DNA from: Clostridia bacterium
GTDB taxonomy: Bacteria; Bacillota; Clostridia; Christensenellales; CAG-314
NCBI GenBank assembly: GCA_017505015.1
Contig: JAFVQA010000165.1
Span: forward strand, 1-32,110
DNA: 32,110 nucleotides
Reading direction: 5' to 3'
Every line of letters begins with the position of its first letter. Positions within the stretch are counted from its first letter, which is position 1. Under the pieces are notes generated by a model. It was not told where the DNA came from and did not search any database. It saw nothing but the letters and a program-made list of their open reading frames with translations. Both the position numbers and the translations under genes were made by a program. Of the stretch, positions 13,462 through 30,109 are shown piece by piece.

Positions 13462-13615
13462 TTATACGTTAAAGCGGAACAACACAACGTCGCCGTCTTT
13501 CATTACGTATTCTTTACCTTCACTGCGAACTTTGCCATCTGCTTTTGCGTTGTTGTAATTTCCACATTCAAGCAAAACTTCATATGGCACTACTTCTGCA
13601 CGGATAAAGCCCTTT
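13462..13615 (-). pseudogene. Duplicated 3' end of ychF (last 50 codons plus stop)
   Basis: 154 bp matching 13658-13811 with 12 substitutions and only one amino-acid change (T/N). Confidence 0.93.
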
Positions 13616-13657
13616 GACGCGATTGACCTTCGGTAGCAATCGCTATAGCCAGGGCTT

Positions 13658-14755
13658 TTATACGTTAAATCTAAACAAGACAACGTCGCCGTCTTTCATT
13701 ACGTATTCTTTGCCTTCACTGCGAACTTTGCCATCTGCTTTTGCATTTGTATAGTTGCCACACTCAAGCAAAACTTCATATGGCACTACTTCTGCACGGA
13801 TAAAGCCCTTTTCAAAATCGCTGTGAATTTTGCCTGCTGCCTGTGGTGCTTTTGTGCCTTTTGCTATTGTCCATGCACGAGTTTCTGGCTCACCCGCTGT
13901 AAGATATGAAATAAGACCAAGCAAACTGTAGCATTTTTTTACAAGGCGGTTAAGGCCAGACTCTTCAATGCCAAATTCTTCATAAAAAACGGCACGGTCT
14001 TCGTCGTCCATCATAGACAAATCTTCTTCTACCTTGGCACAGATAACAAGCACTTCTGCATTTTCTTTGGCTGCTTGTTCTTTAAGTTGGTTTACAAGTG
14101 GCAAATCCTGTTCTGGTGTAGCAAGGTCGCTTTCTGCAATGTTTGCCGCATAGATAACAGGTTTGTCTGTAATGAGAAACAAACCGTCTACGTATGCTTT
14201 TTCTTCTTCGTCAAGCTCAACAGAACGAACAGGCATGCCCTTTTCTAGAGCATCGAGCAAACGTTGCAAAATTTCTGCCTCTATTTTATATTTTTTGTCA
14301 CCTGTTTTTTGCATATTTTTTGCTTTGTCAAGATATTTAGAAACACTTTCAAGGTCAGCAAGAATAAGCTCAAGGTTAATAATTTCCATATCGCGAACAG
14401 GGTCTACAGATTGTTCTACGTGAGTAATATTGCTGTCTTCAAAGCAACGAACAACGTGAACGATAGCGTCAACCTCGCGAATATGGCTCAAAAACTTGTT
14501 GCCAAGACCTTCGCCTTTAGAAGCACCCTTTACAAGACCCGCAATGTCAACAAACTTTAGAAAAGTGTGTGTAATTTTTTTGCTGTTGTAAAGTGCAGCA
14601 AGTTTGTCAAGGCGTTCGTCCGGAACGTCAACGATGCCAACGTTTGGTTCTATTGTGCAAAAAGGATAGTTTGCACTTTCTGCACCAGCATGAGTAATTG
14701 CATTAAAAAGTGTGCTTTTGCCAACGTTTGGCAATCCTACTACGCCAAGTTTCAT
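13658..14755 (-). CDS. ychF: Ribosome-binding ATPase YchF
   Basis: [40 protein letters not shown] and a TGS C-terminus; GGAG RBS before the ATG at 14755. Confidence 0.98.
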
Positions 14756-14898
14756 ATATATCTCTCCAAAAAAACATTTTATTTTGTTTTTGCTAATATA
14801 ATTTAGTGGTTTTGTTTTTGCAAAAAAGGCAAAAATTACCACATATACATTTATTATAACAAAAAAAATTGATTTTGACTATTATGATAAGGTGATAT

Positions 14899-15654
14899 AT
14901 GACAGTTTTTTGTGCTTTTGTCCTAGGAATTGTGCAGGGTTTTACCGAATTTTTGCCAATTTCAAGCAGTGGCCACCTTATACTCACGCAAAAATTGTTT
15001 GGGTTGCAACCAGACCTTTTCCTTAACGTGGCAATGCATTTTGGCACTTTGGTTGCCGTTGTTGTTTTTTATAAAAAGCAGTTGTGGCAAATGTTAAAGC
15101 ACCCTTTTTGCAAAAAAGCAAAACTGGTTTATATTGCAACTTTACCAACGGTTGCAATAGGTTTTTTGGCAAAACTGTTTTTGCCATCTGCCCTTGACGG
15201 AGTTTTGTTGCCACTTGGTTTTGCCTTGACGTTTGTATTGCTGTTGACAAGTCAGTTTGCAAAAAAACAAAAACACAATTTGCTCACAACAAAATATGCA
15301 ACAGGGTTTTTGTGTGGCGTTGTGCAAGGCATTGCCGTTTTGCCAGGTCTTTCGCGAAGTGGTTCAACCATTTGCTTTTTAAAATTTTGCAAAACAAAAA
15401 ACAAAGATGCAACCGAACTTTCGTTTTTAATGAGCATACCCGTTATTTTAGGCAGCATGGTTTTGCTTGGGTTTGACGTTGTGCAAACGCAAACCGCAGT
15501 TGATATATTTCCTGTTTTTGTGGGCATGGCAACAAGTTTTGTTTTTGGCTATTTGTCACTTGGCATATTAAACAAAATTGCCCAAAGCGGAAATTTTGCA
15601 AACTTTGCCCCTTACGTTATTTTTCCATTTTTGCTGTCATGCATAATTTTATAA
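14899..15654 (+). CDS. uppP: Undecaprenyl-diphosphate phosphatase
   Basis: QGFTEFLPISSSGH and PGLSRSG motifs. Confidence 0.96.
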   Translation: MTVFCAFVLGIVQGFTEFLPISSSGHLILTQKLFGLQPDLFLNVAMHFGTLVAVVVFYKKQLWQMLKHPFCKKAKLVYIATLPTVAIGFLAKLFLPSALDGVLLPLGFALTFVLLLTSQFAKKQKHNLLTTKYATGFLCGVVQGIAVLPGLSRSGSTICFLKFCKTKNKDATELSFLMSIPVILGSMVLLGFDVVQTQTAVDIFPVFVGMATSFVFGYLSLGILNKIAQSGNFANFAPYVIFPFLLSCIIL

Positions 15655-15655
15655 C

Positions 15656-15687
15656 AAAAAAAGAGAAAGGATTTATCCTCTCTCTTT
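15656..15687. terminator. Bidirectional terminator
   Basis: AAAGAGA(A)AGGA-ttta-TCCT(C)TCTCTTT between convergent stop codons. Confidence 0.65.
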
Positions 15688-16897
15688 ATTTTTTGTTTTT
15701 TCGTTTTATTCGTGCAATAAGCCTTTTGTCATCATCATCTTCGCTGGTGCGGAACAATCCACGTCTGCGATAGCTTTTGTCTTTAACAGTGTTGTTCACA
15801 AGCACACCAAGACCTATTAACGTTGGCAGATAGAACGTGAGTATACGCCACAGCAACATGCCCCAAAACCTAAAACCACCGTCAAGCACTGCCACGATGA
15901 GATAAAAGAAACCTTCCATCGCGCCAGAACCACCCGGAGTAGGCACAAACGCACTTGCCGCATTTGTATATGCCATAAGCGCAATTACGTAAAACCAAGG
16001 CAAACTTTCACCACTGGCAAGCACAATAAAATACAAAGTAGAAAAATTTAACAACAAGCAGGCCAACGCCATAAAAAAGCCACCGATGAGCGTTTTTTTG
16101 TGGCAACCAATGAGTTTAAGGCTTTTGCTATAGTCATTAACGTAGTTGTCGAATTTATATTTTAATTTATCTGGATTTTTTACTATTTTTATTTTGTGCA
16201 ACAGGCTTATTACACAACGCAAAATTTTTTGTGCCGTTTTTGGAATGAAAGCAAACACCATTATAGAAAGTGGCATTGCAATCATGCAAAACGAACCAAC
16301 GTAAATTGCAACTTTGAGCCATGGGTTGTCAACAATTGCGCCAAACACACAAAAACAAACCACAACAAGCACAAAAAATGCAAGTTGTTGCATAAAAAAA
16401 CAAACTACAGGCAAACTTGTTGCAATGCCTGCAGGCACCTTGTGTTTGTGCAGATAATATATCTGATAAGGCTGACCACCTACTGCCGAAGGGGTGATAT
16501 TGTCAAAATATCTGCCCAGAATCATACTTTTGCTGGTGAGTTTTATACGCCATTGACCTGTTGCCCCACGCAAAAGCACTGCCTGACGAAAACCGTCTAA
16601 AAACAGCATGAGCAACACACAACCAAGAGCAGCCGCAATATAATGCCAGTTTTGCCCCCAGGTAGAAAGCACGAGCGACAAAGGATATTCTTTGTTATTG
16701 TTAAACTCGCTCACAGCAATAACGACAAGCACCACAACTGTAAGAAGCAAGAAAAAATAACCAAATCTGTTGGCTTTGCTTTTTCTGTCTTCAAGTTGTT
16801 TTGCCGTGCTGTCTGCCTTGTGGAGCTTAAACTCCTGCTCGGCAATTTCCATCTTTTTGTCAAAAGACGGTTGTTCGGTCAATTTTTTATCTTCCAT
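15686..16897 (-). CDS. Flippase-like domain protein (lysylphosphatidylglycerol synthase TM/UPF0104 family)
   Basis: NITPSAVGGQPYQ, PTPGGSGAMEG and WRILTFY motifs. ATG at 16897 preferred (apparently leaderless). Confidence 0.9.
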   Translation of the reverse strand: MEDKKLTEQPSFDKKMEIAEQEFKLHKADSTAKQLEDRKSKANRFGYFFLLLTVVVLVVIAVSEFNNNKEYPLSLVLSTWGQNWHYIAAALGCVLLMLFLDGFRQAVLLRGATGQWRIKLTSKSMILGRYFDNITPSAVGGQPYQIYYLHKHKVPAGIATSLPVVCFFMQQLAFFVLVVVCFCVFGAIVDNPWLKVAIYVGSFCMIAMPLSIMVFAFIPKTAQKILRCVISLLHKIKIVKNPDKLKYKFDNYVNDYSKSLKLIGCHKKTLIGGFFMALACLLLNFSTLYFIVLASGESLPWFYVIALMAYTNAASAFVPTPGGSGAMEGFFYLIVAVLDGGFRFWGMLLWRILTFYLPTLIGLGVLVNNTVKDKSYRRRGLFRTSEDDDDKRLIARIKRKNKK

Positions 16898-17228
16898 TTT
16901 TTTATTATAGTTTATTTGTTGGCAAAAGTCCACCCCTTTTAAAAATACCATACAAAATAAATTGTTTTTGTCAATCAAACACCCCTGCGTATTTTTATTT
17001 GCGGTGTGGGCAAACTTGTTTTATGACAAAATGCAACAAATGCAAAGCAAAACTGCAACAAAATTTTTGCATATGCAACGAATGTGGCAAAATTTTGTGC
17101 CAAAACTGTTCAAAACAAAACAACCACCTGTGCCCCGACTGTTTTAACAACACACATTTTGCATCATGACCATGTTGCACAAAGCTGTTTTGTATGTTAA
17201 AATAGCTTTGTATATAAAACGAGGTCAT

Positions 17229-18614
17229 ATGGAATATATAAAACTTGATGCTAAAGGCAAAAAACAATATTACCTTGAAATGCAAAGCGTTATAGACGAG
17301 TTCAACTCAAACGGCAAAAAAACGGTGGTGATTGTAAACGACAATTACTACCCAATTGTCGATGGTGTTTTGACAGTTATTGACAACTATGCAAAAAACC
17401 TTAAAGACAAAATAAACGTGCTTGTTTGTGCCCCTACTCACAGGTGGAAAATACCGTTGAACGATACTGCCGTTTTGTTTTGCAACTCAACCTATTTTCA
17501 CCCTTTGCGCTATGACTACAGCCATGCTAAAGGCGACAAAAAGTTTCGCCGTTTGCTTGACAGTTTGCGCATTGACCTTATGCATATTCACAGCCCATAT
17601 TTTACGGGCAGGTTTATGATAGAATATGCAAATGAAAGGCATATACCGGTTGTTTCAACATTCCACACGCAATATCATCAGGATTTAAAGCGAATACTCA
17701 AACTTGACAGTCTTAAAAACGCCGCACTCGATGCCATTATGAAAGTTTTTCATTTGTCAGACGTGGTGCTCACCATGAACACGGCAACAAAAGACACCCT
17801 TTTGTCATACGGCTTTAACGGTCAGGTGAAAATTTTGCCAAATGGAACGGATATGTCATACGACGGTGACCTTGGCGAACTTAAAAAACTTTGCAACCAA
17901 ACGTATAACGTAAAAGAAGACGAAACAGTTTTTCTTTTTGTTGGCAGACTTATAAAACCAAAAAATATATATCTTATTCTTGATGCGATATATCACCTTG
18001 CCAAAACTCAAAACAACTTTAAAATGATTTACGTTGGCGATGGTGACGAAAAAAGCAAACTTAAAGAAAAAATAAAGGCATACAACCTGCAAAACAAAGT
18101 AATGATGACAGGAAAAGTTCTTGACCAAACTTTGTTAAAGTCACTTTATTGCAGGGCAGATTTATTTTTGTTCCCGAGCATATACGACAGCGACGGCGTT
18201 GTTAAATATGAAGCTGCCGCTTTTGAAACGCCAAGCCTTTTGCTGGAAGGAAGCAATGCTGCATGCGGTGTGACAGACAACCTAAACGGTTTTTTGTGTG
18301 ACGACAACCCAAAAAACATGGCAAACAAAATAGCCCAACTCATGCAGGACAAACCTCTTTTGCAACAGGTTGGTGCTTGTGCAAAACAAACACTTTATAA
18401 AAAGTGGAATGAAATTGCAGACATGGCGTTTGATATTTATATGGACGTTATAACAAAAAACGAACAAATGCCAATAACAAAAGGAAAAGAAAGCATGCGT
18501 GGTGCGCTTAAACATCACCGCAAACGTGTTAAAAAAGGCAGAAAAAACACCAAATTTGTAAAAAAAGCAAGAGAAAAAATTGCAAAAAAACAACAGAAAG
18601 AATCAAAAAAATAA
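17229..18614 (+). CDS. GT4 glycosyltransferase (diacylglycerol glucosyltransferase-like) with a basic C-terminal tail
   Basis: DNYYPIVDGV, HIHSP, FHTQY, FVGRLIKPKN and FPSIYDSDGVVKYEAAA motifs. Confidence 0.9.
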   Translation: MEYIKLDAKGKKQYYLEMQSVIDEFNSNGKKTVVIVNDNYYPIVDGVLTVIDNYAKNLKDKINVLVCAPTHRWKIPLNDTAVLFCNSTYFHPLRYDYSHAKGDKKFRRLLDSLRIDLMHIHSPYFTGRFMIEYANERHIPVVSTFHTQYHQDLKRILKLDSLKNAALDAIMKVFHLSDVVLTMNTATKDTLLSYGFNGQVKILPNGTDMSYDGDLGELKKLCNQTYNVKEDETVFLFVGRLIKPKNIYLILDAIYHLAKTQNNFKMIYVGDGDEKSKLKEKIKAYNLQNKVMMTGKVLDQTLLKSLYCRADLFLFPSIYDSDGVVKYEAAAFETPSLLLEGSNAACGVTDNLNGFLCDDNPKNMANKIAQLMQDKPLLQQVGACAKQTLYKKWNEIADMAFDIYMDVITKNEQMPITKGKESMRGALKHHRKRVKKGRKNTKFVKKAREKIAKKQQKESKK

Positions 18615-18618
18615 AACA

Positions 18619-18648
18619 AAAAAGCATGGTCGTTTGACTATGCTTTTT
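18619..18648. terminator. Bidirectional terminator
   Basis: AAAAAGCATGGTC-gttt-GACTATGCTTTTT. Confidence 0.82.
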
Positions 18649-18653
18649 GCTTT

Positions 18654-20252
18654 TTAGTTTTTGTCAGTTAAAACCTTTTTTCGTTTTTTAAAAACAAGGT
18701 ATTTAAGGTTGTTTCGCCACAGGTTGCCCCAGCTTATAAATATTGCCACACCACCTATAACGTAACATGCAAAGGTAATGATATAGTCGATTTCCCACAG
18801 GCAATAGCCCCACTTTCCGTCAGCAACAACTGCAGACGAAACAAAGGTTGTTCCCACAGAAACAAGCATTAAGCCAAGCATAACGATAACGGCGTTTGCC
18901 CACACAGGCACCTGCAAAATCTGCTCTGTTTTGCCAAGCTCTTCGCGTTCTTGCTTGAGTGCCTCGAGCACACCAAGCACCAAAAAGTTTTGATATATCA
19001 TATAAAAATCCATATCAATAACACTATACATAAACAACTGATAGCAAGTCAAAACTGCAAAAAAACGGAACGTCGAACCGTGGCTGAACAAAACGATATA
19101 TTTACGATAATAGTGATAGCCAAACACAAGCAAACCAAACAAGCCCATGCCTGACATGACGTGCACCAAAATAGCATGTGGTTGATACATAACGTTTTTA
19201 ACAGGGTCAAAAAAGCCAACGCCAAAAAGTTTGTTTGTATTGAACTGTTCGATAAAATAACCCCACAAATAACGACGATCACCGTTTTCAAGACCTTTGT
19301 CAAACATAACGGCAAACAGGTCGGTCACCAGTTTTTGGTTTGTATAAACAAACAACCCAATAACTGCCAGAATAGCCACAACCGTGAGAGTCATTGTTTT
19401 TTTTCGTTTTGTTTTAACCAAAAAATAAACCGCAGCAAAAGGAATTGCAATGAGCAACGCTAAAATGTTACCTCGGCTCATTGTTAGCAAAACCATAATG
19501 GCAAAAAATGCCGCCAGAATCATATACAATGGGTTTTCTTTTTCAAGGCAAACGTACAATGCCATCATAACGGCAAAGCACAGCACAGTCGCTGCATTGT
19601 TTGTAACACCCCAGCCAAGGTCTGTTCGTTTGTGTGCAATAAACCACACAGGGTCGCTTGACTGACAAATTACAACAATCATTTCAAACGCAACAACCAA
19701 ACCAATGGCAATGATAACGTTTGAAATAAGTTTTTTAAACTCTGGCACGTCGCCACTTGACAAAATCACGTAAATAACAAACAACACGGCATAAAGCACA
19801 ACCACTATTGCGTTGTTTTCCAAACTGAACTGGTCTGACAACAAACCGCCAAGTGCAAGTGCAACAAGGCAAAAAGCAAAACTGTTGGAAAGGTTTAAAA
19901 ACTTTTTGTTTTGTCGTGGAAATTTTATTTTGTGATAAACCACACAAAAAATAGCATATGCAAACAAAGCCATTACTGCAACTGCCAAAGTAACTGCCTC
20001 GGCAGGAACACGGCCGGTAGAAATTGACTCAGGAATTTGTTTGAGTGACAAACAATAAGTGGCAAGGCTTGTGATAACTACAAACGGTGTAGCATTTCGT
20101 TGCAAAAGCAAAGTTGTGCATGCAAAACCAACCAGCATAAAAAAGCCGGCAATTTCCCACCCGATAAGCCATATTAACGCAACAGCCAATGCAACTGCAT
20201 ATACAAAAGAAAGGCTGTTTATAAAGTTTTGCGCTTTTTTGATAAACGTCAT
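18654..20252 (-). CDS. O-antigen ligase/Wzy_C family membrane protein
   Basis: Polytopic; LTMSRG, RRYLW, FGVG and PH..GMGLFG motifs; GAGGTG RBS. Confidence 0.82.
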   Translation of the reverse strand: MTFIKKAQNFINSLSFVYAVALAVALIWLIGWEIAGFFMLVGFACTTLLLQRNATPFVVITSLATYCLSLKQIPESISTGRVPAEAVTLAVAVMALFAYAIFCVVYHKIKFPRQNKKFLNLSNSFAFCLVALALGGLLSDQFSLENNAIVVVLYAVLFVIYVILSSGDVPEFKKLISNVIIAIGLVVAFEMIVVICQSSDPVWFIAHKRTDLGWGVTNNAATVLCFAVMMALYVCLEKENPLYMILAAFFAIMVLLTMSRGNILALLIAIPFAAVYFLVKTKRKKTMTLTVVAILAVIGLFVYTNQKLVTDLFAVMFDKGLENGDRRYLWGYFIEQFNTNKLFGVGFFDPVKNVMYQPHAILVHVMSGMGLFGLLVFGYHYYRKYIVLFSHGSTFRFFAVLTCYQLFMYSVIDMDFYMIYQNFLVLGVLEALKQEREELGKTEQILQVPVWANAVIVMLGLMLVSVGTTFVSSAVVADGKWGYCLWEIDYIITFACYVIGGVAIFISWGNLWRNNLKYLVFKKRKKVLTDKN

Positions 20253-20486
20253 CACACACCTCGACAAACATTATACACTATTTTGTCACCTTTTGTCGAT
20301 ACCCTTATTATATTTAGCACAATCAATATAGTTTTAACGTGCATATGTATTGATAAAAGTGCATTTTTGTCGATTTTTTTGACAAAAAGTTAACTTAATT
20401 TTACTTTGCCTTTTTTGTTTGCGTTTTATTTTTTTTTACCATATAATTTTGTTATCTATATATTATCCACAAGGAGGACACTAACT

Positions 20487-21245
20487 ATGAAAATGAAAGA
20501 TAAAGTAGTTATCGTAACAGGTGGCAGCCAAGGCATTGGTCTTGGCATTGCTCGTGCCTTTGCTGCAGAAGGTGCAAGCCTTGCAATCACTGGTCGCAAT
20601 CTTGACAAACTTGAAAAAGCCGCTGAACAAATAAAAGCAGATTATAACGTGCCTGTATTTTGTGTTTCTGCCGACGGCAGTAAAGAAGCTGACGTTAAAA
20701 ACGCAGTAAAACAAATTGCAGAACACTATGGTCGCATTGACAGCATTGTTAACAATGCACAAACTTCTAAATCAGGCCTTACTCTTGTAGAACACACTAC
20801 CGAAGATTTTGACCTTGCTATTTACACAGGTCTTTATGCATCTTTCTGGTATATGCGCGAAGCTTTCCCTTATCTTAAAGAAAGCAAGGGCACAGTTATC
20901 AACTTTGCATCTGGTGCCGGTTTGCACGGCAGACCTGGCCAATCATCTTATGGTGCTGCAAAAGAAGGCATTCGTGGTTTGAGCAGAACTGCTGCAACAG
21001 AATGGGGCGAATTTGGCATTCGTGTAAACGTTGTTTGCCCACTTGCAATGACACCTGGTCTTGCACAATGGAAAGAAGCCTTCCCAGAAATGTATGCAAA
21101 ACAACTTTCTGCAATTCCACTTCGTCGTTTTGGCGATGCACAAGATGATATCGGCAAAGTTTGCGTTTTCCTTGCAAGTGACGATTCTTCTTACATCACT
21201 GGTCAAACAATCGAACTTCAAGGTGGCTCTGCTTTGCGCCCATAA
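20487..21245 (+). CDS. SDR oxidoreductase, bile-acid 12alpha-hydroxysteroid dehydrogenase-like
   Basis: TGGSQGIG, NNAQ and YGAAK motifs; AAGGAGG RBS. The subfamily call rests on remembered similarity. Confidence 0.85.
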   Translation: MKMKDKVVIVTGGSQGIGLGIARAFAAEGASLAITGRNLDKLEKAAEQIKADYNVPVFCVSADGSKEADVKNAVKQIAEHYGRIDSIVNNAQTSKSGLTLVEHTTEDFDLAIYTGLYASFWYMREAFPYLKESKGTVINFASGAGLHGRPGQSSYGAAKEGIRGLSRTAATEWGEFGIRVNVVCPLAMTPGLAQWKEAFPEMYAKQLSAIPLRRFGDAQDDIGKVCVFLASDDSSYITGQTIELQGGSALRP

Positions 21246-21318
21246 GGCACTTGAAAAGTACACGGAAATTGGCTCTGTATAAAGTTTAGTTTTTATGCAA
21301 AACTTTTATGGTGCTGAC
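21246..21318 (+). repeat. Stop-adjacent two-hairpin element, copy A
   Basis: GGCACTT-gaa-AAGTAC..TTGGCTC..AAAGTT..AACTTTTATGGTGCTGAC. Confidence 0.7.
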
Positions 21319-21339
21319 TTGTTGTAGAAGTAATACAAA

Positions 21340-21383
21340 CAAAAACAAAAAGCACAGGAATTTTCCTGTGCTTTTTGTTTTTG
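21340..21383. terminator. Bidirectional terminator (21-bp inverted repeat)
   Basis: CAAAAACAAAAAGCACAGGAA-tt-TTCCTGTGCTTTTTGTTTTTG. Confidence 0.9.
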
Positions 21384-21420
21384 TCTATATCAATTAAATG
21401 TTGAACTGTCTACAAACAGA

Positions 21421-22863
21421 CTACTTGTTCAAAAGGTCGATAGAAAAATCAAGTCGGCGAAGTGATTCTTCTTTGCCCAAAAGGTCTGCAAGTTCTGTTG
21501 CTCCACCCGGTGTGCTTGCCTTGCCAGAAAGTGCCACACGAACAGGCCACAAAACAATGCCGTTTTTAACGCCAAGTTCACCAACCAGACCAATGAGTGT
21601 GTCGTGAATTGAAGTTTCGTTCCATTCGTTCATTGCAACGAATTTTTCTTTAACTTTTGGCAACACGTCTTTTGCAACATCTGGGTTTGTTTTGAGCTTT
21701 TTGTGAGTATAAAGTTCGTTGTCAAATGCCTCAAACTCTTCCAGGAAATTAACAAGATCAGGAATGTCGCCCAAAGTGTCAATGCGTGACTGAATGAGTT
21801 TGCAAAGTTTAACGTAGTCATATTTGCCTGCAACTTTAGATTTGTCAAGAAATGGTGTTGCCATTGAAACAAACTTGTCAAAGTCGAGTTCTTTAATATA
21901 TCTGCCGTTGAGCCAACGAAGTTTTTGTTCGTCAAAGATAGATTGTGATTTTGAAATGCCCTCTACGCCAAACATTTGTTTGAGTTCGTCCATAGAAAGT
22001 TTTTCCTCATTGCCTTTTGGTGACCAGCCCAAAAGTGCAATATAGTTTACGATGGCTTCTGTCAAAAAGCCTTTTTCCAAAAGGTCTGCAAAACTTGCGT
22101 CGCCGTTTCGTTTAGAAAGTTTGTGCTGAGCATCTTTCATGATTGGTGGCAAGTGCATATACATTGGTTGTTCCCAGCCGAAAGCCTTGTACAAAAGGTT
22201 GTATTTTGGTGTTGATGACAAATATTCGATACCACGCATAACAACAGTAATGTTCATAAGGTGGTCGTCAATAACGTTGGCAAAGTTATAAGTTGGCATG
22301 CCGTCTGACTTGATAAGAATGTTGTCTTCCAACTCGCTGTTGTCAATTTCGATATCGCCAAAAACCATGTCGTGATATTTTGTTTTGCCTTCTGTCGGCA
22401 TATTCTGACGGATAACAAAAGGTTCGCCCGCGTCAAGTTTTGCTTGAATTTCTTCTTTAGAAAGGTGCAAGCAATGTTTGTCGTATTTGCGAGCACCGTT
22501 TACGTCTGGCAAATTTTCAAGCCTTTCTTTAGAACAGAAGCAATAATATGCTTCGCCTTTTTCTACAAGTTCCAAAGCATATTTCATATATTCGTTTTTG
22601 CGTTGGCTTTGAACGTATGGACCATATTCGCCACCCACGATTGGGCCTTCGTCATAATCCATGCCAACAGTTTTGAGAGTGTCAAGAATGATGTCAACTG
22701 CACCCTCAACGTATCTTTCCATATCTGTATCTTCAATTCGCAAAATAAATTTGCCGTCGTTTTTGCGTGCAAACAAATAGGCATAAAGCGCTGTGCGCAA
22801 ATTGCCAATGTGCATATAGCCTGTTGGGCTTGGTGCAAAACGAGTGCGAACTTCTTTTATCAT
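21421..22863 (-). CDS. gltX: Glutamyl-tRNA synthetase
   Basis: RFAPSPTGYMHIG, RIEDTD and KLSKR motifs; GGAGGG RBS before the ATG at 22863. Confidence 0.98.
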   Translation of the reverse strand: MIKEVRTRFAPSPTGYMHIGNLRTALYAYLFARKNDGKFILRIEDTDMERYVEGAVDIILDTLKTVGMDYDEGPIVGGEYGPYVQSQRKNEYMKYALELVEKGEAYYCFCSKERLENLPDVNGARKYDKHCLHLSKEEIQAKLDAGEPFVIRQNMPTEGKTKYHDMVFGDIEIDNSELEDNILIKSDGMPTYNFANVIDDHLMNITVVMRGIEYLSSTPKYNLLYKAFGWEQPMYMHLPPIMKDAQHKLSKRNGDASFADLLEKGFLTEAIVNYIALLGWSPKGNEEKLSMDELKQMFGVEGISKSQSIFDEQKLRWLNGRYIKELDFDKFVSMATPFLDKSKVAGKYDYVKLCKLIQSRIDTLGDIPDLVNFLEEFEAFDNELYTHKKLKTNPDVAKDVLPKVKEKFVAMNEWNETSIHDTLIGLVGELGVKNGIVLWPVRVALSGKASTPGGATELADLLGKEESLRRLDFSIDLLNK

Positions 22864-22887
22864 AAATCCCTCCATAAGGTTTTTCTT

Positions 22888-23673
22888 TTATTCTTCAAGC
22901 ACGAGCTCTTGTTTGCCCATGCAACTGTTTCCAAACGTTTTTTGATATTCTTCATTATATTTTAGCAACAAATCCTGTTTGTGAAAACTAAAATATTCGT
23001 CTTTGCCAATAATTATATGTTCTAAAAGAGTTACGTCAATGCTCTTTAATGTGTTAAACAGCATTTTTGTAAAAGCAAGGTCATCGGCAGAAGGTCTTGC
23101 CAGACCACTTGGGTGCGAATGTGCCAAAACAACGCCAACCCCTTTTGACGCATAACAAAAACCCACGATTTCACGTGCAAGCACGTTTATTCTGTTGACT
23201 GACCCGTGCCACGTTTTTACGTTTGTTATTTCATAACTGTTGTCAAGGCAAATTGCAACAAGTTCTTCTCTGTCAGACTCTTCAAGCAAGGTGTTGGCAT
23301 AGTCAAACACCTCGTTAAAACTCATGAGCCTTTTTTTGCTTTTGAGCATTTCCATTTTATATCTGCGAAAAACCGTGAGATAATTTTTAATTATTGTTGC
23401 CGTGTTTTCGCCAACGCCCTTTACAGTAACAAGCTCGCTCACGTCTGCATTTATTATGCCGGTGAGTGAACCAAACTTTTTGAGCAAAGCGTGCGCAATG
23501 CCGTTTGTGTCGCACCTTTTGTTTGCCTGATATAACATCATTTCTACAATTTCGTGCGTTTGATAACTGTCAAGGTCGCCGTTTATTGCCCTTTCACGAA
23601 GACGTTTTCGGTGACCAACGTGCAAATTTTGCTCATTGACGTTTTTGTTTTTGTCGTTGTTTTGCAAATCCAT
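22888..23673 (-). CDS. radC: RadC family JAB-domain protein
   Basis: GHRKRLRER, HhH VKGVGE, and the JAB motif AHSHPSG..PS..D..EHIII. Confidence 0.92.
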   Translation of the reverse strand: MDLQNNDKNKNVNEQNLHVGHRKRLRERAINGDLDSYQTHEIVEMMLYQANKRCDTNGIAHALLKKFGSLTGIINADVSELVTVKGVGENTATIIKNYLTVFRRYKMEMLKSKKRLMSFNEVFDYANTLLEESDREELVAICLDNSYEITNVKTWHGSVNRINVLAREIVGFCYASKGVGVVLAHSHPSGLARPSADDLAFTKMLFNTLKSIDVTLLEHIIIGKDEYFSFHKQDLLLKYNEEYQKTFGNSCMGKQELVLEE

Positions 23674-23741
23674 AGATATATTTTAACACAAAAACAAATT
23701 GAGTCTATATAAATGTAGCACTTTTGTCAAAAATTGTGTAT

Positions 23742-23975
23742 AATATTTGAGTGGTTGTAATCAACCACTCAAATATTTCACGAGTAAAACGTATGTTAAC
23801 ATAACATAGCAAGTGCTAATATGTAACTCTACATAAATTCGAGTATGCATGCCACGAGTAAAATGTATGTTAACATAACATAGCAAGTGCTAATATGTAA
23901 CTCTACATAAATTCGAGTATAATATTACAAAAGTGGTTAGTCATAACCCTGCAAATATTTCACGAGTAAAACGTA
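23742..23975. repeat. Composite array of palindromes and 68-bp direct repeats
   Basis: 16-bp perfect IR at 23742-23777; R1 23779-23846; GCATGC; R2 23853-23920 (one mismatch); degenerate IR 23921-23959; truncated R3 23961-23975. Confidence 0.92.
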
Positions 23976-24248
23976 ATTTTTGCAAAATACAAACAACCGC
24001 ACTTTCATATCTTCACAATTTTTGCCACGCTTTTACAAAGTGTGTGTTGAACGTGCAAAAAAGATTTGACATGAAATAGCAAAGATTTTTTGCTCATTAA
24101 AAAACAAAAAATATAACAAACAAAACGTTATAACCCAACAAAACAAACTAGCAAGCCATACTATTGGGCACTTTTTAAGTGCCTGGTTGCGCCACTTGAC
24201 ATCAAGTGGCATAAATAAAAAAATAAAAGCTGTCAACGAGGTGACAAA

Positions 24249-25520
24249 ATGTCAATAACACAACAGACTTTTGACCAAATGATAGCAACGTTGCAAAAAA
24301 CGTTGCAAATAAACACAATCAAATCTGAAGCGAAACAAGGCATGCCGTTTGGCGAAGGCAATGCAATATGCCTTAAATACGTGCTTGACCTTTGCAAAGA
24401 AATGGGTTTTGAAACGCAAAATTTCGACAACTATGCAGGCCATGCCGACTATGGCGATGGCGACGAAGTTTTTGGCGTGCTTGGTCACCTTGACGTTGTT
24501 CCGGTAAACCCAACAGGCTGGGTTGCAGACCCATTTGGTGGCGAAATTAAAGACGGCGTTTTGTATGGCCGTGGCGTGCTTGACAACAAAGGTCCAATGA
24601 TTGCATGCCTTTATGCAATAAAACAACTTAAAGACGAAGGTTTTAAACCAAGCAAAAAAATAAGAATAATTTTTGGTTGCGACGAAGAGTCTGGCTGGAA
24701 ATGCATGGATTATTATGCAAGCAAAATAAAAATGCCTGACGAAGGTTTTAGCCCAGACGGTGATTTTCCTGTAATAAACGTAGAAAAAGGTCTTGTGCAT
24801 TTTGAAATAAACGCAGGCAAACTGCCAGAAGGCGTTGTTGTTTATGGCGGTGCAAGACCAAACATTGTGCTTGACGAATGTCACGCAGTTTTGCCAGACG
24901 GACAGGAAATTGTTGAATATGGCAAAGCAAGTCACGGCAGTCTGCCAGAATGTGGCATTAACGCAGGGTGGAAAATGTTTGCAAAACTTAACGAACTTTA
25001 TCCACAAAACAAGGCAATAACTTTTGCAAACACAAAAGTTTGCGGTGACTGCAACGGTGGCAACATTGGCATTGGCTGGAGCGATGACGTGAGTGGCAAA
25101 CTCACACTCAACCTTGGTTTTGTAAAAACTGTTGACGGCTGTCTTGTGCTTGGCCTTGACGTGAGATATCCTGTGACGTTTGATTTGCAACAGGTTATTG
25201 ACCAAATAAAATCACAAATGCCACAAGACGCAACTTTGCAGGTTTTTGGTGCACATGCCCCTCTTCACGTGCCTGCAGAAAGCAACCTTGTGCAAACTTT
25301 GCTTAAAGTTTTTAGCGAACAGACAGGAACGAAAGACCCGCAACCAATAGCGGTTGGCGGTGCAACTTATGCAAGGCGTTTGCCTGTTGGCGTTGCGTTT
25401 GGCCCTGTGTTTGACAGCGACGAAAAACTTATTCACGAAACAAACGAAAGAGCAAGTCTTGACCACTTGCGCAAAATGATGAACATATATTACGAAGCAA
25501 TAAAAGCTTTGACAAAATAA
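24249..25520 (+). CDS. M20 family dipeptidase (PepV/Sapep-like)
   Basis: GHLDVVP, GRGVLDNKGP, DEESG, GATYAR and IHETNE motifs. Confidence 0.9.
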   Translation: MSITQQTFDQMIATLQKTLQINTIKSEAKQGMPFGEGNAICLKYVLDLCKEMGFETQNFDNYAGHADYGDGDEVFGVLGHLDVVPVNPTGWVADPFGGEIKDGVLYGRGVLDNKGPMIACLYAIKQLKDEGFKPSKKIRIIFGCDEESGWKCMDYYASKIKMPDEGFSPDGDFPVINVEKGLVHFEINAGKLPEGVVVYGGARPNIVLDECHAVLPDGQEIVEYGKASHGSLPECGINAGWKMFAKLNELYPQNKAITFANTKVCGDCNGGNIGIGWSDDVSGKLTLNLGFVKTVDGCLVLGLDVRYPVTFDLQQVIDQIKSQMPQDATLQVFGAHAPLHVPAESNLVQTLLKVFSEQTGTKDPQPIAVGGATYARRLPVGVAFGPVFDSDEKLIHETNERASLDHLRKMMNIYYEAIKALTK

Positions 25521-25553
25521 TTTGCTAAATAATTTATTTTACGGAAGTTAACT

Positions 25554-27245
25554 ATGGACATAAAAAAGATTTTGAGTGAACAAATAAACATAGAAGGTGT
25601 AAGTCAAGAAGAAATTTACAACCTCATAACAGGCACAGCAAACGCAAGTCTTGGCGATTTTTCGTTGCCATGCTTTAGGTTTGCAAAAGCATTGCGCAAA
25701 TCACCTGTGCAAATTGCAAACGAACTTAAAGATGCGTTTGGTGGTTGCTCAGTTGTGTCAGAAGTGCAGGCTGTAAACGGATATCTCAACTTTTTTGTAG
25801 ACAACAAGGTTATGTCTGCAACAGTGCTTGACGAAGCAAGGGCAGAAAATTTTGGCAAAAGCGACCTTGGCAACGGCAAAACAATCTGCATTGACTATTC
25901 GTCTATCAACATTGCAAAACCTTTTCACATTGGCCACCTTGGCACAACTGCAATTGGTGGCAGTTTGTATAAACTTTACAAAAACCTTGGCTACAACGTG
26001 GTTGGCATAAACCACCTTGGCGACTGGGGCACACAGTTTGGCAAACTTATCGTTGCATATGACCTTTGGGGCGACAAAGAAAAGATAGAACAAGGTGGCG
26101 TAGAAGCCTTGCAGGAAATTTACGTTAAATTTCACCAGGAAGAAGTTGACCACCCAGAACTTACAGACCAGGCACGTGCATGGTTTGCAAAAATCGAACA
26201 GGGCGACCAACGTGCTTTGGAAATGTTCCACTGGTTTAAAGACATCACCCTTAAAGAAGTTAACAAAATTTACAAACGCCTTAACGTAACTTTCGACAGT
26301 TACAACGGCGAAAGTTTTTATAACGACAAAATGCAACCTGTTTTGGACGAACTCGAAGCAAAAGGTCTTGTAAAAGAGTCAGACGGTGCAAAAATCGTTG
26401 ACCTTGACGAATTTGGCATGGCACCTTGCCTTTTGGTAAAAGCAGACGGTGCAACACTTTATGCAACACGTGACCTTGCAGCGGCATTCTATCGCAAAAA
26501 TACCTATGATTTTTACAAATCACTTTACGTAGTTGCTTATCAGCAAAATTTGCACTTTAAACAATTTTTCAAAGTATTGGAACTCATGGGTCACGAATGG
26601 GCAAAAGACTGCGTTCACGTTGCATATGGCATGGTTTCTTTGGCAGAAGGCAGCATGTCTACACGCAAAGGCAACGTTGTTTGGCTTTCAAAGGTGCTTG
26701 ATGCAGCTGTTGCAAAAGCAAAATCTATCATTGAAGAAAAAAACCCAGACCTCGAAAACAAAGACGAAGTTGCAGAAAAAATTGGTGTTGGTGCAGTTAT
26801 GTTTTCTGCTTTGCAAAACGGCAGAATAAAAGACATCACCTTCTCTCTCGACAAAGTGCTCAACTTTGAAGGTGAAACCTGCCCATATTTGCAATATACT
26901 TATGCACGCACAAACAGCGTTTTGACAAAAGCAGGCAACGCAATAAACTCAAAAGCAGTGCCTGACTATGCTTCACTTGACAATGCCGAAAGCAAAGAAC
27001 TCATTAAACTCATCAACAGATATCCAGACATCATCAAAGATGCTGCCGAAAAATACGAACCATCTATTTTGTCAAAATATCTCATTGACCTTGCACAGGC
27101 ATATAACAAATTCTATTTTGAACACCGCATCTTGAACGAAGAAACAAGCATTCAACTCCCACGTTTGTATGCAACCGATGCAACAAACAAAATCATTAAA
27201 AACGGCTTGTCTTTGCTTGGCATTGACGTTCCAGCCAAAATGTAA
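25554..27245 (+). CDS. argS: Arginyl-tRNA synthetase
   Basis: SSINIAKPFHIGH, NHLGDWGTQFG, MSTRKG and YLQYTYAR motifs. Confidence 0.98.
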   Translation: MDIKKILSEQINIEGVSQEEIYNLITGTANASLGDFSLPCFRFAKALRKSPVQIANELKDAFGGCSVVSEVQAVNGYLNFFVDNKVMSATVLDEARAENFGKSDLGNGKTICIDYSSINIAKPFHIGHLGTTAIGGSLYKLYKNLGYNVVGINHLGDWGTQFGKLIVAYDLWGDKEKIEQGGVEALQEIYVKFHQEEVDHPELTDQARAWFAKIEQGDQRALEMFHWFKDITLKEVNKIYKRLNVTFDSYNGESFYNDKMQPVLDELEAKGLVKESDGAKIVDLDEFGMAPCLLVKADGATLYATRDLAAAFYRKNTYDFYKSLYVVAYQQNLHFKQFFKVLELMGHEWAKDCVHVAYGMVSLAEGSMSTRKGNVVWLSKVLDAAVAKAKSIIEEKNPDLENKDEVAEKIGVGAVMFSALQNGRIKDITFSLDKVLNFEGETCPYLQYTYARTNSVLTKAGNAINSKAVPDYASLDNAESKELIKLINRYPDIIKDAAEKYEPSILSKYLIDLAQAYNKFYFEHRILNEETSIQLPRLYATDATNKIIKNGLSLLGIDVPAKM

Positions 27246-27322
27246 GCGAACTTCAAAAGTTCGCACGAACGAGTTGGCTCGGTAAAAGTAAAGTTATAAT
27301 AAAAAGTTTTTATCGTGCTGAC
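27246..27322 (+). repeat. Stop-adjacent two-hairpin element, copy B
   Basis: GCGAACTT-caa-AAGTTCGC..GTTGGCTCGGTAAAAG..TTTTTATCGTGCTGAC. Confidence 0.72.
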
Positions 27323-27348
27323 AAATTGCAAAACTAAATTTATAAAAT

Positions 27349-27378
27349 AAAAGACGGATTGAAAAATCCGTCTTTTTT
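27349..27378 (+). terminator. Intrinsic terminator
   Basis: AAAGACGGATT-gaaa-AATCCGTCTTTTTT. Confidence 0.88.
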
Positions 27379-27460
27379 AGTTAATTTTATTTTAAAGGCT
27401 TTTATGGTTATACTTTTTGCAAAAACACAAACACGTGTGTGTTTTCAAAACAAAAAAAAT

Positions 27461-27533
27461 AAGCACCATAAAAGCTTTGTTCTTTCACGGTGCTTAATAG
27501 TTAGTCTGCTTTTGCACACTTTGTAAGTGTGTG
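27461..27533 (-). repeat. Stop-adjacent two-hairpin element, copy D (second stem resembles a terminator)
   Basis: Minus strand CACACTT-aca-AAGTGTG..AGCAGACT..AAGCACCGTGAAAG..CTTTTATGGTGCTT plus T tract. Confidence 0.68.
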
Positions 27534-27977
27534 TTATGCGTTTTTGATTGCATTTGTTACTGCGTTGTGTTCGAGTGGGTTGATTGAGAAAACAAGGCAG
27601 TTGCCTTTTGCAAGACCAGCATCTTCCAATGATTTGTGGAATTCTTCTGCAGAACCTTCATCTTGAATGTCTTTAATAAGACCACGGAAAGCTTCGCTGT
27701 CAGTATAGAATTCTTTCATGTCTTCTGTTGCTTCAAATTCCAAAACGATTACTACGTTTGTGTTCAAACCGTCTACCTTTTTAAAGCAAGCTGCTTCTAC
27801 TGGAACGTCTGTTTCGCTTGTATATGAATCTGCGGCAGAAGTTGATTCGATTTTTTCATAACCAATGCCTTCCAATGCTTTTTCTACTTTGCCAAAAGAA
27901 GAACCACATGCTGTCAAAACAAAAGTCATTGCAAGCACAGCAACCAAAAGAGCTGTAAGTTTAAAAAACTTTTTCAT
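27534..27977 (-). CDS. Lipoprotein of unknown function
   Basis: MKKFF..lipobox LTAC; GGAGG RBS before the ATG at 27977. Confidence 0.82.
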   Translation of the reverse strand: MKKFFKLTALLVAVLAMTFVLTACGSSFGKVEKALEGIGYEKIESTSAADSYTSETDVPVEAACFKKVDGLNTNVVIVLEFEATEDMKEFYTDSEAFRGLIKDIQDEGSAEEFHKSLEDAGLAKGNCLVFSINPLEHNAVTNAIKNA

Positions 27978-28240
27978 TACTTTTACCTCCATATAAATTT
28001 TTGTATATCAAGTATATCATTTTATATATGCATTTTGTCAATAACAAAACCCAAAATAAAAAACAACAGTTTTGGCGATTTGTATGCAAAATATACTTTT
28101 TTAATTTTTTGTATAACTATCTTTTTGTTGCTAAAAATAGTTTTTGTGTTTTTATACAAAACAGCCCCTTTTTGCATAATATGTTTTTGAGCACAGTTTT
28201 GCATTTTGCAAAAAAACACACTGTGTGTTAATATATCACT

Positions 28241-28849
28241 ATGAAATACGGCATATCACAACGTCAGCTTGACAAAATGACTTTTTGTTTTGAGGGCAAA
28301 ACTTTTTATGGTGTGTTGCAACACTGGTATCCACTTTTTTGGCAAAGGTTGTCAGGCTGTGGACCATGTTGTGCAACAAACATGCTTGCCTGCATTGACG
28401 ATAACACAAAACTTGTCACAAAGCAAGATTGTCTTGAAACAATGCAAAAGGTGTGGAAGTTTGTAACACCAGGCATAAGGGGACTCAACAAGGTAGAAAA
28501 ATTTGCAAAAGGCAGCAACGGCTTTTTTGCAAAATACAACCTGCCTTATACCTGCCAGTGGATCAAATGTCAGCCACAAAACAAAAGCGATTTTGACAAT
28601 ATGATATCTTTTTTAAAAAATTCGTTTGCAAATGATCAACCCGTTGCCTTTTTGAATTTGTGCAACGGCGAAATAAACGAGCTTGAAAGGTGGCACTGGG
28701 TAACAATTGTGTCGATAGACGAAAAAGACGGCGAATATATTGCCAAAATTTTTGACAGCGACCTTGTTTTTGAAATGAGCCTTGACAAATGGCACCGCAC
28801 AGCCACCGACGTTGCAAGTTTTGCTTGTTATAATCACTTAAATCACTAA
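28241..28849 (+). CDS. Hypothetical protein, peptidase C39-like (papain fold)
   Basis: SGCGP...HWVTI...IFD suggests a Cys-His-Asp triad; no signal peptide. Confidence 0.62.
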   Translation: MKYGISQRQLDKMTFCFEGKTFYGVLQHWYPLFWQRLSGCGPCCATNMLACIDDNTKLVTKQDCLETMQKVWKFVTPGIRGLNKVEKFAKGSNGFFAKYNLPYTCQWIKCQPQNKSDFDNMISFLKNSFANDQPVAFLNLCNGEINELERWHWVTIVSIDEKDGEYIAKIFDSDLVFEMSLDKWHRTATDVASFACYNHLNH

Positions 28850-28868
28850 TAAACATTGTTGACAAAAC

Positions 28869-28901
28869 AAAAAAGACACGAGAAAACCTCGTGTCTTTTT
28901 T
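28869..28901. terminator. Bidirectional terminator
   Basis: A6-GACACGAG-aaaac-CTCGTGTC-T6. Confidence 0.88.
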
Positions 28902-28926
28902 ATCTTGTTTAAAACAATAATCCTTG

Positions 28927-29391
28927 TTATTTAGAACGTGTAAAAGTCATTTTAACAACTGTTTTTGTCATTTTGTCAGGGCTTTCTTCTGTTTGTTGAA
29001 AAACAAGTTTGCCTGTGTTGTTGTTTTCGAGCTCAAGTGTTTCGTCGCCAAAATTTATTGTGATGTTGCCGTCTTTTTCGCTCCAAGTTATATCTTTGTC
29101 AAGATTGTTTTCTACAGGAACAAAACCTGTGTCTTCTGGCAAAGAAAAAACAACGTGACCTTTGCCGTCTTCTTTAACTTCAACAACAAACTTTGCACCG
29201 GCATTTACAAGGTCAACCTTTGTTTCCATAACCACTTTTTCTTGACTTTCGTCTGCATAAACGTATGCCTCAATTGTCATTTCTGTTGCTGTCCATTTGC
29301 CTTCGAGAATAACAATTTTGCAACCGGCAAATGCAAAAGTTATTGCAAGCACCAACGTGAGTGCCAAAATTGACTTAACAAATTTTTTCAT
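28927..29391 (-). CDS. Lipoprotein, lipocalin-like beta-barrel
   Basis: Lipobox FAGC followed by LEGKW; beta-rich; FTR C-terminus. Confidence 0.75.
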   Translation of the reverse strand: MKKFVKSILALTLVLAITFAFAGCKIVILEGKWTATEMTIEAYVYADESQEKVVMETKVDLVNAGAKFVVEVKEDGKGHVVFSLPEDTGFVPVENNLDKDITWSEKDGNITINFGDETLELENNNTGKLVFQQTEESPDKMTKTVVKMTFTRSK

Positions 29392-29579
29392 AAACCAAAA
29401 CCTCGTTTTGTTTTTTTATTTACTTTTTTATTATATCAGTTATAAGACAAAAGTCAATAGTCACTTTTATATAACAAAAACCAAAACCCCTATTGTATTG
29501 TTGCTTTTTTTGATATATAATATATATGTAAATATTTTGTGTTTTACATAAACACATTGCTATTATGGAGGTATTTATT

Positions 29580-29954
29580 ATGAAATTTTACGTATGTAAA
29601 CATTGTGGAAACATCATCACTTATCTCAACAATGCAGGCGTGCCTGTTGTTTGCTGTGGCGAAAAAATGAGCGAACTTGTTCCTGGCACTACAGATGCAG
29701 CCGTTGAAAAACACGTGCCTGCAGTAAGCGTTGACGGCAACGTTGTTACTGTTAAAGTTGGCGAAGTTGAACACCCAATGATTGACGTTCACTATATTCA
29801 ATGGATTGTTTTGCAAACTAACCAGGGCAACCTCATCAAAAACTTGCAACCAAACCAACCACCTGTTGCAACTTTTGTTTTGGCAGACGGCGAACAAGCC
29901 ATTGCAGCATATGAATATTGCAACCTTCACGGTTTGTGGAAGAAAGATATCTGA
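29580..29954 (+). CDS. dfx: Desulfoferrodoxin (2Fe superoxide reductase)
   Basis: CKHC..CC centre I; EKHVP, HPM..HYI and CNLH centre II; GGAGG RBS before the ATG at 29580. Confidence 0.95.
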   Translation: MKFYVCKHCGNIITYLNNAGVPVVCCGEKMSELVPGTTDAAVEKHVPAVSVDGNVVTVKVGEVEHPMIDVHYIQWIVLQTNQGNLIKNLQPNQPPVATFVLADGEQAIAAYEYCNLHGLWKKDI

Positions 29955-29962
29955 TTGCTTGT

Positions 29963-30027
29963 CACGAGTAAAGACTGTGTAAACAAAGCATAAAAAGAGC
30001 CTTTGTGTTAATTGCACTACTTCGAGT
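29963..30027 (+). repeat. Diverged solo copy of the 68-bp repeat unit
   Basis: Starts with CACGAGTAAA and ends with TTCGAGT, as R1/R2 do; similar length; internal hairpin. Confidence 0.72.
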
Positions 30028-30030
30028 CAA

Positions 30031-30089
30031 AAGCAATTGCAGCTTATGAATATTGCAACTTGCACGGTTTGTGGAAGAAAGAAATCTAA
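30031..30089 (+). pseudogene. Duplicated 3' end of dfx
   Basis: 59 bp matching 29896-29954 with 6 substitutions; AIAAYEYCNLHGLWKKEI* versus ...KKDI*. Confidence 0.92.
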
Positions 30090-30109
30090 CACCATTTGAC
30101 AACTAAAAC

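Follow-up and report, generated by a model that had tools for sequence, protein, structure and literature searches.

Gene-end duplications around short repeat modules at ychF and dfx of a Clostridia genome: candidate miniature integrative cassettes without a recombinase

Two genes on one contig of a Clostridia metagenome-assembled genome (MAG), ychF and the desulfoferrodoxin gene dfx, each end in a stop codon that is followed by a short insert and by a second copy of the gene's own 3' end. What placed these extra gene ends there, and is the same kind of event responsible for both? The window that holds them is the whole stretch analysed here, the 32,110-nt contig JAFVQA010000165.1 of assembly GCA_017505015.1 (contig C164), which is one of 185 contigs of a 1.36-Mb MAG (G000; 38.7% GC, completeness 95.9%, contamination 4.4%). 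Of the relatives that bear a name, the nearest are Clostridia MAGs under the label Christensenellaceae or Candidatus Limihabitans, with a YchF that is just 74% identical. We compared G000 with itself by BLAST, which gave 76 local direct-repeat pairs, 26 of which were inspected, and with relatives, namely 82 family genomes for the ychF end, 41 relatives for the core of a repeat module (F2, see below) and a same-genus genome (G004); public sequencing runs were compared as Logan contigs. The reading towards which we lean, by a modest preference, is that miniature integrative cassettes, lacking a recombinase and resembling cis-mobilizable elements (CIMEs), were inserted at both loci.

The last 154 nt of ychF are present twice, 92% identical and at a spacing of 196 (Table 1). 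The gene lies in an open reading frame (ORF) at 13658-14842 on the minus strand that encodes YchF (Pfam PF06071 at 3.3e-37, plus MMR_HSR1), and its 366-aa frame was matched in 599 of 600 pattern-matched stretches of the genome collection, from which 80 loci were kept. At dfx, the repeated segment is 77 nt long (29896-29972 and 30031-30107), 82% identical and spaced by 135. In both genes the reading frame runs on through the upstream copy and stops at its end, and the downstream copy is likewise an open frame with a stop. The repeat search and the Pfam identities thereby agree with a first-pass annotation, made from the letters alone, that had reported both duplications at these places. Its junction strings were also found as described, with TCGCGTCAA followed by AGGGC at the right junction of ychF on the coding strand and TCGAGTCAA followed by AAGCA at that of dfx. 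That both junctions fall just after a GAA codon is approximately right, the ychF boundary lying in the A run that closes such a codon and the dfx boundary one base beyond one. Its description of the inserts as structured stands for ychF, where the insert with its flanks folds as DNA at -13.8 kcal/mol (z = -3.74; 1 of 200 shuffles equally good), but not for the 76-nt dfx insert, the fold of which is unremarkable (z = -0.66; 48 of 200 shuffles equally good).

The dfx duplication is no assembly artefact, because contigs of two public runs from different studies (X1 and X3, one of which may be the source sample) bridge the whole structure (29795-30135) with 0 differences. Comparison with empty alleles supported the earlier description of small units that lack a recombinase gene and place a second gene end in a gene. 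G004 has a single gene end at all four loci tested (ychF, dfx, icd and uvrB), a second relative (G001) has a single end at uvrB, and among the 82 family genomes two full-length matches to the ychF end were found in G000 only. On this comparison, the loci are insertions relative to the same-genus genome.

The two copies of each pair differ in a way that suggests import. Over seven genes with duplicated ends, functional and displaced copies have 29 synonymous versus 12 non-synonymous differing codons, and the displaced copies contain 0 stops or frameshifts. Since random decay would yield mostly non-synonymous changes, this excess argues that the copies diverged as working gene ends in separate lineages, and that one copy of each pair was imported and did not decay in place. 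Copy divergence runs from ~8% (ychF) to ~17% (icd), and in five of the seven genes the two ends are 8-17% different, which amounts to 5-14 changes over 57-153 nt, largely at synonymous sites. Because this divergence is at the level of species, later overwriting of one copy at nearly every site is unlikely. At ychF, the upstream copy is the more distant one from every relative, not only from G004 (Table 1) but also from G093 (80% vs 86%) and G001 (76% vs 80%); at dfx it is the downstream copy that differs, at 4 sites, over the stretch in which the upstream copy equals G004. None of the 82 family genomes is closer to the divergent ychF copy than the window's own second copy. A diversity-generating retroelement was rejected as a source of the differences by eye, these not being adenine-specific. 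In a genome of another genus of the same family (G080), a partial second ychF end (C73:6114-6167; 54 nt, 87%) lies on a contig that differs from that of its ychF and may be an independent case.

What lies between the copies? By their sequence, the ychF and dfx inserts are members of two different repeat families. The family at dfx, F1 (~68 nt; CACGAGTAAA..TGTWAAC..AAGTG..TGTWAAC..TTCGAGT), has 12 full copies in G000 (nhmmer), the right end of which is TTCGAGT followed by variable bases. Direct-repeat matches between both flanks were seen at 7 of 11 F1 loci, and F1 typically lies between two diverged copies of a ~90-nt repeat (unit A). Its pattern was found in just three other MAG assemblies of the genome collection, one match being a coding false positive. 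A structured RNA or hairpin was dropped as an identity for F1 when RNAalifold on 19 copies gave no consensus structure. The family at ychF, F2b (GGCTA-TAGCGATTG..CAATCGC-GTCAA), has five copies in G000, all ending in CGTCAA, and terminal inverted repeats GCGATTG/CAATCGC; in the genome collection it occurs in one other MAG only. The F2b arms are identical to the inner hairpin arms of a longer module, F2, and the ychF insert matches full F2 modules in G001, G002 and G004.

The 22-nt core of F2 (GTAA-GGAGCGNAGCGACGGAATAGCG..GCGTC) was found at more than 119 loci in related Clostridia MAGs among the matches listed, and in 11 of the 41 relatives, all of the same family; a reversed control pattern had 0 matches. 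In a set of 127 cores, 112 are preceded by GTAA, 37 are neighbours of a tRNA gene and 32 are followed by a repeat of their flank (29 at 125-391 nt, the others at 673, 2115 and 2649 nt). F2 modules often sit at tRNA T-loops next to a duplicated tRNA 3' end. The GCGAAGC-type mini-hairpin of the core covaries (G-C 94, A-T 31, G-T 2, A-C 0; n=127), with the support overstated by the non-independence of the sequences. Rfam holds no family for the inserts, and eight F2 loci searched against it matched tRNAs alone.

The modules also occur in other settings. Unit A (ACTTAAAAAGTGYGCAA.AGTAGGCTCTGTAT...TTGCAGAGGCAC), which has no Rfam match in the window, lies there at ~24150-24200, 27500-27530, 30180-30260 and 21245-21315, all on the minus strand, and on many other contigs; its 5' motif occurs 45 times in G000, mostly right behind genes and often paired around F1. 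Nesting was observed in MAG record JAFTHO01 (L084, L085, L083 and L087) and on contig C126 of G000, where F1 is found within F2, between GGAAT and the hairpin. Two separate copies of unit A contain a full F2 (50 nt) at one and the same position, with no long duplication (L083 and L087).

Table 1. Features of the duplicated gene ends in the window
Feature	Position	Strand	Remarks
ychF gene, present reading	13658-14758	-	366 aa, upstream copy forms the end; Pfam YchF-GTPase_C + MMR_HSR1
ychF, upstream in-frame copy with TAA stop, 154 nt	13658-13811	-	more divergent copy; 86% to G004 vs 92% for the other copy
ychF insert, 42 nt, F2b module (inner hairpin of F2)	13616-13657	-	AAGCCCT + GGCTA + hairpin TAGCGATTG..CAATCGC + GTC
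ychF, displaced downstream copy	13462-13615	-	open frame and stop kept; nearer to all relatives
dfx (desulfoferrodoxin) ORF	29565-29954	+	Pfam PF01880 at 4.1e-21 + PF06397; likely start ATG 29581 after GGAGG
dfx, upstream in-frame copy with TGA stop	29896-29954	+	first 45 nt same as G004
dfx insert, TTGCTT + one F1 module + A	29955-30030	+	CACGAGTAAA..TGTAAACA..TTCGAGT; nhmmer 29961-30029, E = 3.3e-15
dfx, displaced downstream copy, own TAA stop, then native terminator	30031-30089	+	repeat search, sequence, G004 comparison
Third site in the span of the first-pass annotation, two tandem F1 modules (23777-23846, 23851-23920)	23750-23975	+	an intergenic hairpin region lies on either side, as two diverged copies of 44 nt (23750-23793, 23932-23975)

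The first-pass annotation had seen in the two genes a wider system, with the shared GTCAA junction as its signature and with target choice by base pairing. The layout did prove to be a genome-wide phenomenon, not confined to ychF and dfx. A scan for gene-3'-end duplications in G000 found it at seven protein genes (ychF, dfx, icd, mscL, uvrB, rsfS and one unnamed gene, by Pfam), at the 3' end of the signal recognition particle (SRP) RNA gene (by Rfam) and at several tRNA genes. Three of the 21 tRNA genes are followed by a copy of their own 3' end (Val-tac, with two extra copies, Leu-cag and Ile-gat), and behind those for Arg-ccg and Leu-gag come an F2 module and an orphan fragment, giving at least 13 such sites in the 1.36-Mb genome. 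Flanking repeats range from 21 to 154 nt over the sites, some copies being near-identical (rsfS, 35 nt at 100%; contig C10, 85 nt at 96%), and the tRNA cases join at one fixed position in the T-loop. Tandem arrays of such small units have three members at L142 and two each at L186, on contig C199 of G004 and at 23.7 kb of the window, and another lies at the tRNA-Val gene of contig C45. In a related MAG (L086), a look-alike F1 array has apparently the same upstream sequence as the 23.7-kb site, the flank having been compared by eye. Beside the tRNA-Ile unit of G000 (C152:2422-2574) stand two identical 48-nt copies that, by eye, resemble a tRNA-Ile anticodon arm with ~21 extra loop bases.

The proposed signature found no support: the inserts belong to two repeat families, and TCGNGTCAAA, for which 3 occurrences were counted in the window where 0.25 were expected (0 of 100 shuffles had as many), is not enriched genome-wide, with 12 occurrences against 9.4 +/- 3.0 in shuffles, 4 of the 12 being at such junctions by inspection. 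Base pairing fared similarly. The complementarity at ychF (AAAGCCCT/AGGGCTTT, 8 nt) has p ~0.02-0.03 against random positions and that at dfx (ATTGCTT/AAGCAAT, 7 nt) p ~0.10, the latter being perfect with the downstream copy only, as had been reported; when 15 junctions were compared with 20,000 random genome positions, ychF alone stood above background (p < 0.05).

Which enzyme could have acted? No recombinase family was found in the 20 window ORFs scanned (Pfam). In the whole of G000, 95.9% complete, Y1 HUH (PF01797), RVT_1, IS110 and TnpB each gave 0 matches, which leaves the link to IS200/IS605 insertion sequences that the first-pass annotation had drawn unsupported. Three tyrosine recombinases are present (contigs C32, C67 and C85); no homologue of them adjoins any of the 127 F2 modules and no module was seen beside them, so that of the enzymes expected to share these ends (HUH, IS110, reverse transcriptase (RT) or tyrosine recombinase) each had either no match or no adjoining module. 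G000 further has four serine-recombinase matches, of which three fall in frames as long as 535-613 aa. A large serine recombinase (LSR) lies on another contig than the window (C22:17688-19325; Pfam Resolvase, Recombinase and Zn_ribbon_recom). A reverse-complement F2 module starts ~20 nt past its stop, and the GGAGCG arm of this module abuts an orphan fragment that matches, at 18 of 18 nt, the 3' end of tRNA-Ser(cga) on contig C93. The order of LSR, module and orphan tRNA end is kept for 60-61% identical LSRs at L132 and L177/L233 (3 genomes in total) and is absent from the more distant LSR loci inspected. Of the ORF families up to 3.5 kb away from the 127 F2 cores, only the LSR keeps a constant position and strand at more than one locus (3 loci). 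Judged by this conserved arrangement, full F2 modules are tied to LSR elements that enter tRNA T-loops. The enzyme is probably an LSR, which for the ychF and dfx loci is a candidate only.

Two observations concern the LSR genes themselves. The C22 gene and its F2 module (C22:1-19421; L269) stand directly downstream of a leu/ilv cluster with leuA-like, aconitase-type, isopropylmalate dehydrogenase, ilvB-, ilvC- and ilvD-like genes, which may be cargo of a large island; alternatively, the LSR may stand alone. A second LSR (531 aa; C168:5588-7375) ends ~120 nt from the 3' end of tRNA-Glu(ctc) on the opposite strand, is kept in G004 (contig C76) and has no F2 module.

How, then, could the two loci have arisen? 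A cassette would consist of the target gene's last ~57-153 coding bases and stop, taken from another lineage, and of a short repeat-family module, F2b at ychF and F1 at dfx. After insertion the gene would end in one copy, the other lying silent just downstream, in the attL/attR layout of integrative elements that restore a 3' end but with the body shrunk to an att-proximal module, that is, a CIME reduced to 135-196 bp. A cassette may have entered at the left boundary of the duplicated segment through site-specific recombination, with an LSR of the C22 type acting in trans, or else the cassettes may be deletion derivatives of such elements; they might still be able to move. As in elements that restore a 3' end, target-end repeats flank the inserts, the upstream copy completes the gene and relatives have a single end; no recombinase lies between the repeats, the inserts being 42 and 76 nt long. 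The likeness to CIMEs is uneven: full F2 is the LSR-proximal end in 3 genomes, the ychF insert has the inner F2 hairpin only, and no recombinase is linked to F1.

Several further observations weigh against the cassette reading. The ychF module lacks the GTAAGGAGCG..GACGG arm, which contacts the junction in the tRNA cases, and its orientation to the target is opposite to theirs. G001 and G002 each have 5 F2 cores and no LSR homologue at E <= 1e-20, and in G000 leu/ilv biosynthesis genes occupy the region upstream of the C22 LSR, where the left end of an element was not found. According to a review (PMC5704250), serine-recombinase elements mostly disrupt genes and have very short flanking repeats with a ~2-bp crossover. 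Here the flanking repeats are not short but 21-154 nt, so that the involvement of an LSR must suppose a long repeat carried by the element, which is atypical; a single LSR with many different targets would also be unusual. The direction of import is inconsistent as well, the divergent copy being upstream at ychF and downstream at dfx, and since the polarity is opposite the native copy is not assignable in general. No contig among the matches listed from the public runs bridges the ychF structure, probably since the copies share long identical words, which yields no verdict; many partial contigs around ychF in these runs come from other organisms or alleles, and a scan of metagenomes for the right junction gave 2 matches, both by chance in unrelated DNA. 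Finally, neither the public-run contigs, in which circles and empty-allele joints are unreadable, nor the family genomes gave a sign of movement or of a donor allele.

The same evidence bears on the alternatives. The loci could be independent scars, each left by a full-size prophage, integrative and conjugative element (ICE) or integrative and mobilizable element (IME) that entered at a gene end and was nearly wholly deleted, so that attL and attR are dead remnants. Full-size relatives with LSR, F2 module and orphan tRNA end do exist, G001 and G002 retain modules without any LSR homologue, and remnant partial tRNAs and CIMEs are known outcomes (PMC5704250; bioRxiv 10.1101/2020.12.28.424599). 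Random deletion should however leave ragged ends, whereas the units found are compact and alike, their module ends being shared across targets and genomes; they occupy no fewer than 13 sites of one 1.36-Mb genome, partly in tandem arrays (though unequal crossing-over could also yield arrays), and we regard scars as unlikely, albeit an option that deserves real weight. Improbable, in our judgement, is that hairpin modules resembling miniature inverted-repeat transposable elements duplicated tens to ~150 bp of target upon insertion, giving copies that were at first identical, and that one copy was later overwritten through ordinary homologous recombination with a divergent strain. The F2b terminal inverted repeats would fit such modules, as would simple insertions without long duplication (the unit A cases L083 and L087) and the near-identical copies at rsfS and C10, but the duplication lengths of 35-154 nt form a range that, to our knowledge, no transposition chemistry yields. 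To explain the 8-17% divergence of five of seven gene ends, almost every site would moreover need its own replacement from another species, and Y1, IS110, TnpB and RT had 0 matches in a search that covered these families and left DDE families outside it.

Natural transformation would need no dedicated enzyme, a foreign ychF or dfx allele with a module behind its stop codon being joined at one end by homology and at the other illegitimately, at a microhomology within the gene, which would create the duplication. One copy is indeed foreign and short palindromic microhomologies are present (8 nt at ychF, 7 nt at dfx and, by eye, at C10 and C47 too); yet 13 of 15 junctions show complementarity no better than background, the joins of the tRNA cases fall at a fixed T-loop position, and more than ten conserved 3' ends with always a complete replacement end and stop are unlike rare illegitimate joins, which leaves this route with a slim chance. 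The model of the first-pass annotation, in which non-autonomous IS200/IS605-like (HUH Y1) units with a TCAA right end carry a guide behind the stop that pairs with the second copy, is largely refuted and now appears very improbable. It could draw on GTCAA at both junctions, on five F2b copies ending in CGTCAA, on the ychF stem (z = -3.74) with its 8-nt match (p ~0.02) and on the covarying F2 mini-hairpin, which would suit a single-strand substrate. Against it, Y1 was found neither in G000 (95.9% complete) nor in the genes that recur next to the 127 modules, the genome as a whole shows no enrichment of the motif, the dfx pairing has p ~0.10 and the 13 other junctions show none, and F1 ends in TTCGAGT plus variable bases. 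IS200/IS605 elements, moreover, are not known to duplicate their target and insert 3' of a fixed 4-5-nt site, whereas long duplications flank these inserts and the bases to their left vary by site. An assembly artefact, with the alleles of two strains joined in tandem by the metagenome assembler, is equally hard to credit. The MAG has 185 contigs and 4.4% contamination, the copies resemble two alleles and ychF is unbridged by contigs among the matches listed; but dfx is bridged exactly in runs of two studies (one may be the source sample), the inserts belong to repeat families of many independently assembled MAGs, and the same layout is found at tRNA genes in dozens of other assemblies.

A further step beyond the cassette reading, and a rather doubtful one, is that the modules are portable attachment arms of one recombinase, likeliest the C22-type LSR, with the target set by the carried gene-end copy and not by the protein. 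On this view, the 3' end of any conserved gene, tRNA or SRP RNA could become the target of a 130-200-bp cassette simply through the sequence that the cassette carries, and cassettes would cross species and swap gene 3' ends in a natural form of homology-programmed site-specific integration. Were the cassettes merely mobile, they would rank among the smallest integrative elements known, gene-free, made of a replacement end and a short module, and present in numerous essential genes of a gut genome streamlined to 1.36 Mb. Site-specific integration would then be open to parasitism by ~150-bp cassettes, the ends of housekeeping, tRNA and SRP RNA genes would be exchanged between species, and serine recombinases could use long target-matching arms. 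As scars only, the sites would still document past integrations at an unusual density and give reason for caution in gene calling at 3' ends. The F2 core is a clean site marker in Christensenellales-type MAGs (more than 119 loci among the matches listed, control 0) and points to a recombinase family worth testing for target flexibility.

Elsewhere in the window, an 850-aa ORF with collagen-like triplet repeats (2033-4585, minus strand; Pfam Collagen) explains D1 and D5, two repeat families with a 9-nt period. The only Rfam matches of the window are a cobalamin riboswitch (7514-7703, minus strand; 89.5 bits) and a Gut-1 RNA (1443-1515, plus strand; 50.4 bits, barely above the cut-off).

How do the units compare with known systems? 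The palindrome-associated elements derived from IS200/IS605 are likewise small, hairpin-bearing and non-autonomous, and their right end resembles the TCAA seen here; in the present case no Y1 was found in G000, long duplications flank the inserts and the junction motif is not general. Integron cassettes have an attC site with a GTTRRRY core at the cassette boundary. As in these, cargo is followed by a hairpin module, and at ychF the stem base pairs the post-cargo sequence with the start of the next unit; unlike them, the junctions (GTCAA before AGGG, GAGTCAA before AAGC) lack a GTTRRRY core, no array lies beside an integrase, and what is carried is part of a gene, with homology to the target. 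SCCmec, a staphylococcal cassette chromosome (SCC) element, and the ccr-less pseudo-SCC sit at the rlmH (orfX) 3' end and are moved by the large serine recombinases CcrAB. The parallel with SCC is a serine-recombinase element at the 3' end of an intact housekeeping gene, with recombinase-less relatives and tandem composites at the same site. SCC is known to use a single fixed site, where the direct repeats are short and a long replacement end of the gene is lacking, whereas the units described here have many targets and 57-154-nt diverged replacement ends.

Tycheposons, as bioRxiv 10.1101/2020.12.28.424599 presents them, are flanked by partial tRNA copies that separate successive insertions, leave remnants and in a minority use an LSR; they carry an integrase and cargo, whereas the units here are mostly gene-free and also lie in protein-gene ends and in the SRP RNA gene. 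The first-pass annotation had spoken of an undescribed system. The principle, 3'-end replacement and CIMEs, is known; the term is fair for the miniature format and the module families, of which our literature searches found no description, with supplements, which perhaps list small att-flanked remnants, outside their scope. Known CIMEs are kilobases long. They are derivatives of ICEs or IMEs that keep attL and attR and have lost the integration and transfer genes, and they form tandem arrays by accretion (PMC5704250), as do the units at the C45 tRNA-Val gene, L142, L186 and G004:C199. Like CIMEs, the units at ychF and dfx are flanked by the duplicated end of a target gene that stays intact and hold no recombinase. 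They differ in being 135-196 bp long, with a replacement end and a 42-76-bp module alone, in being many per small genome, and in being known here through their sequence.

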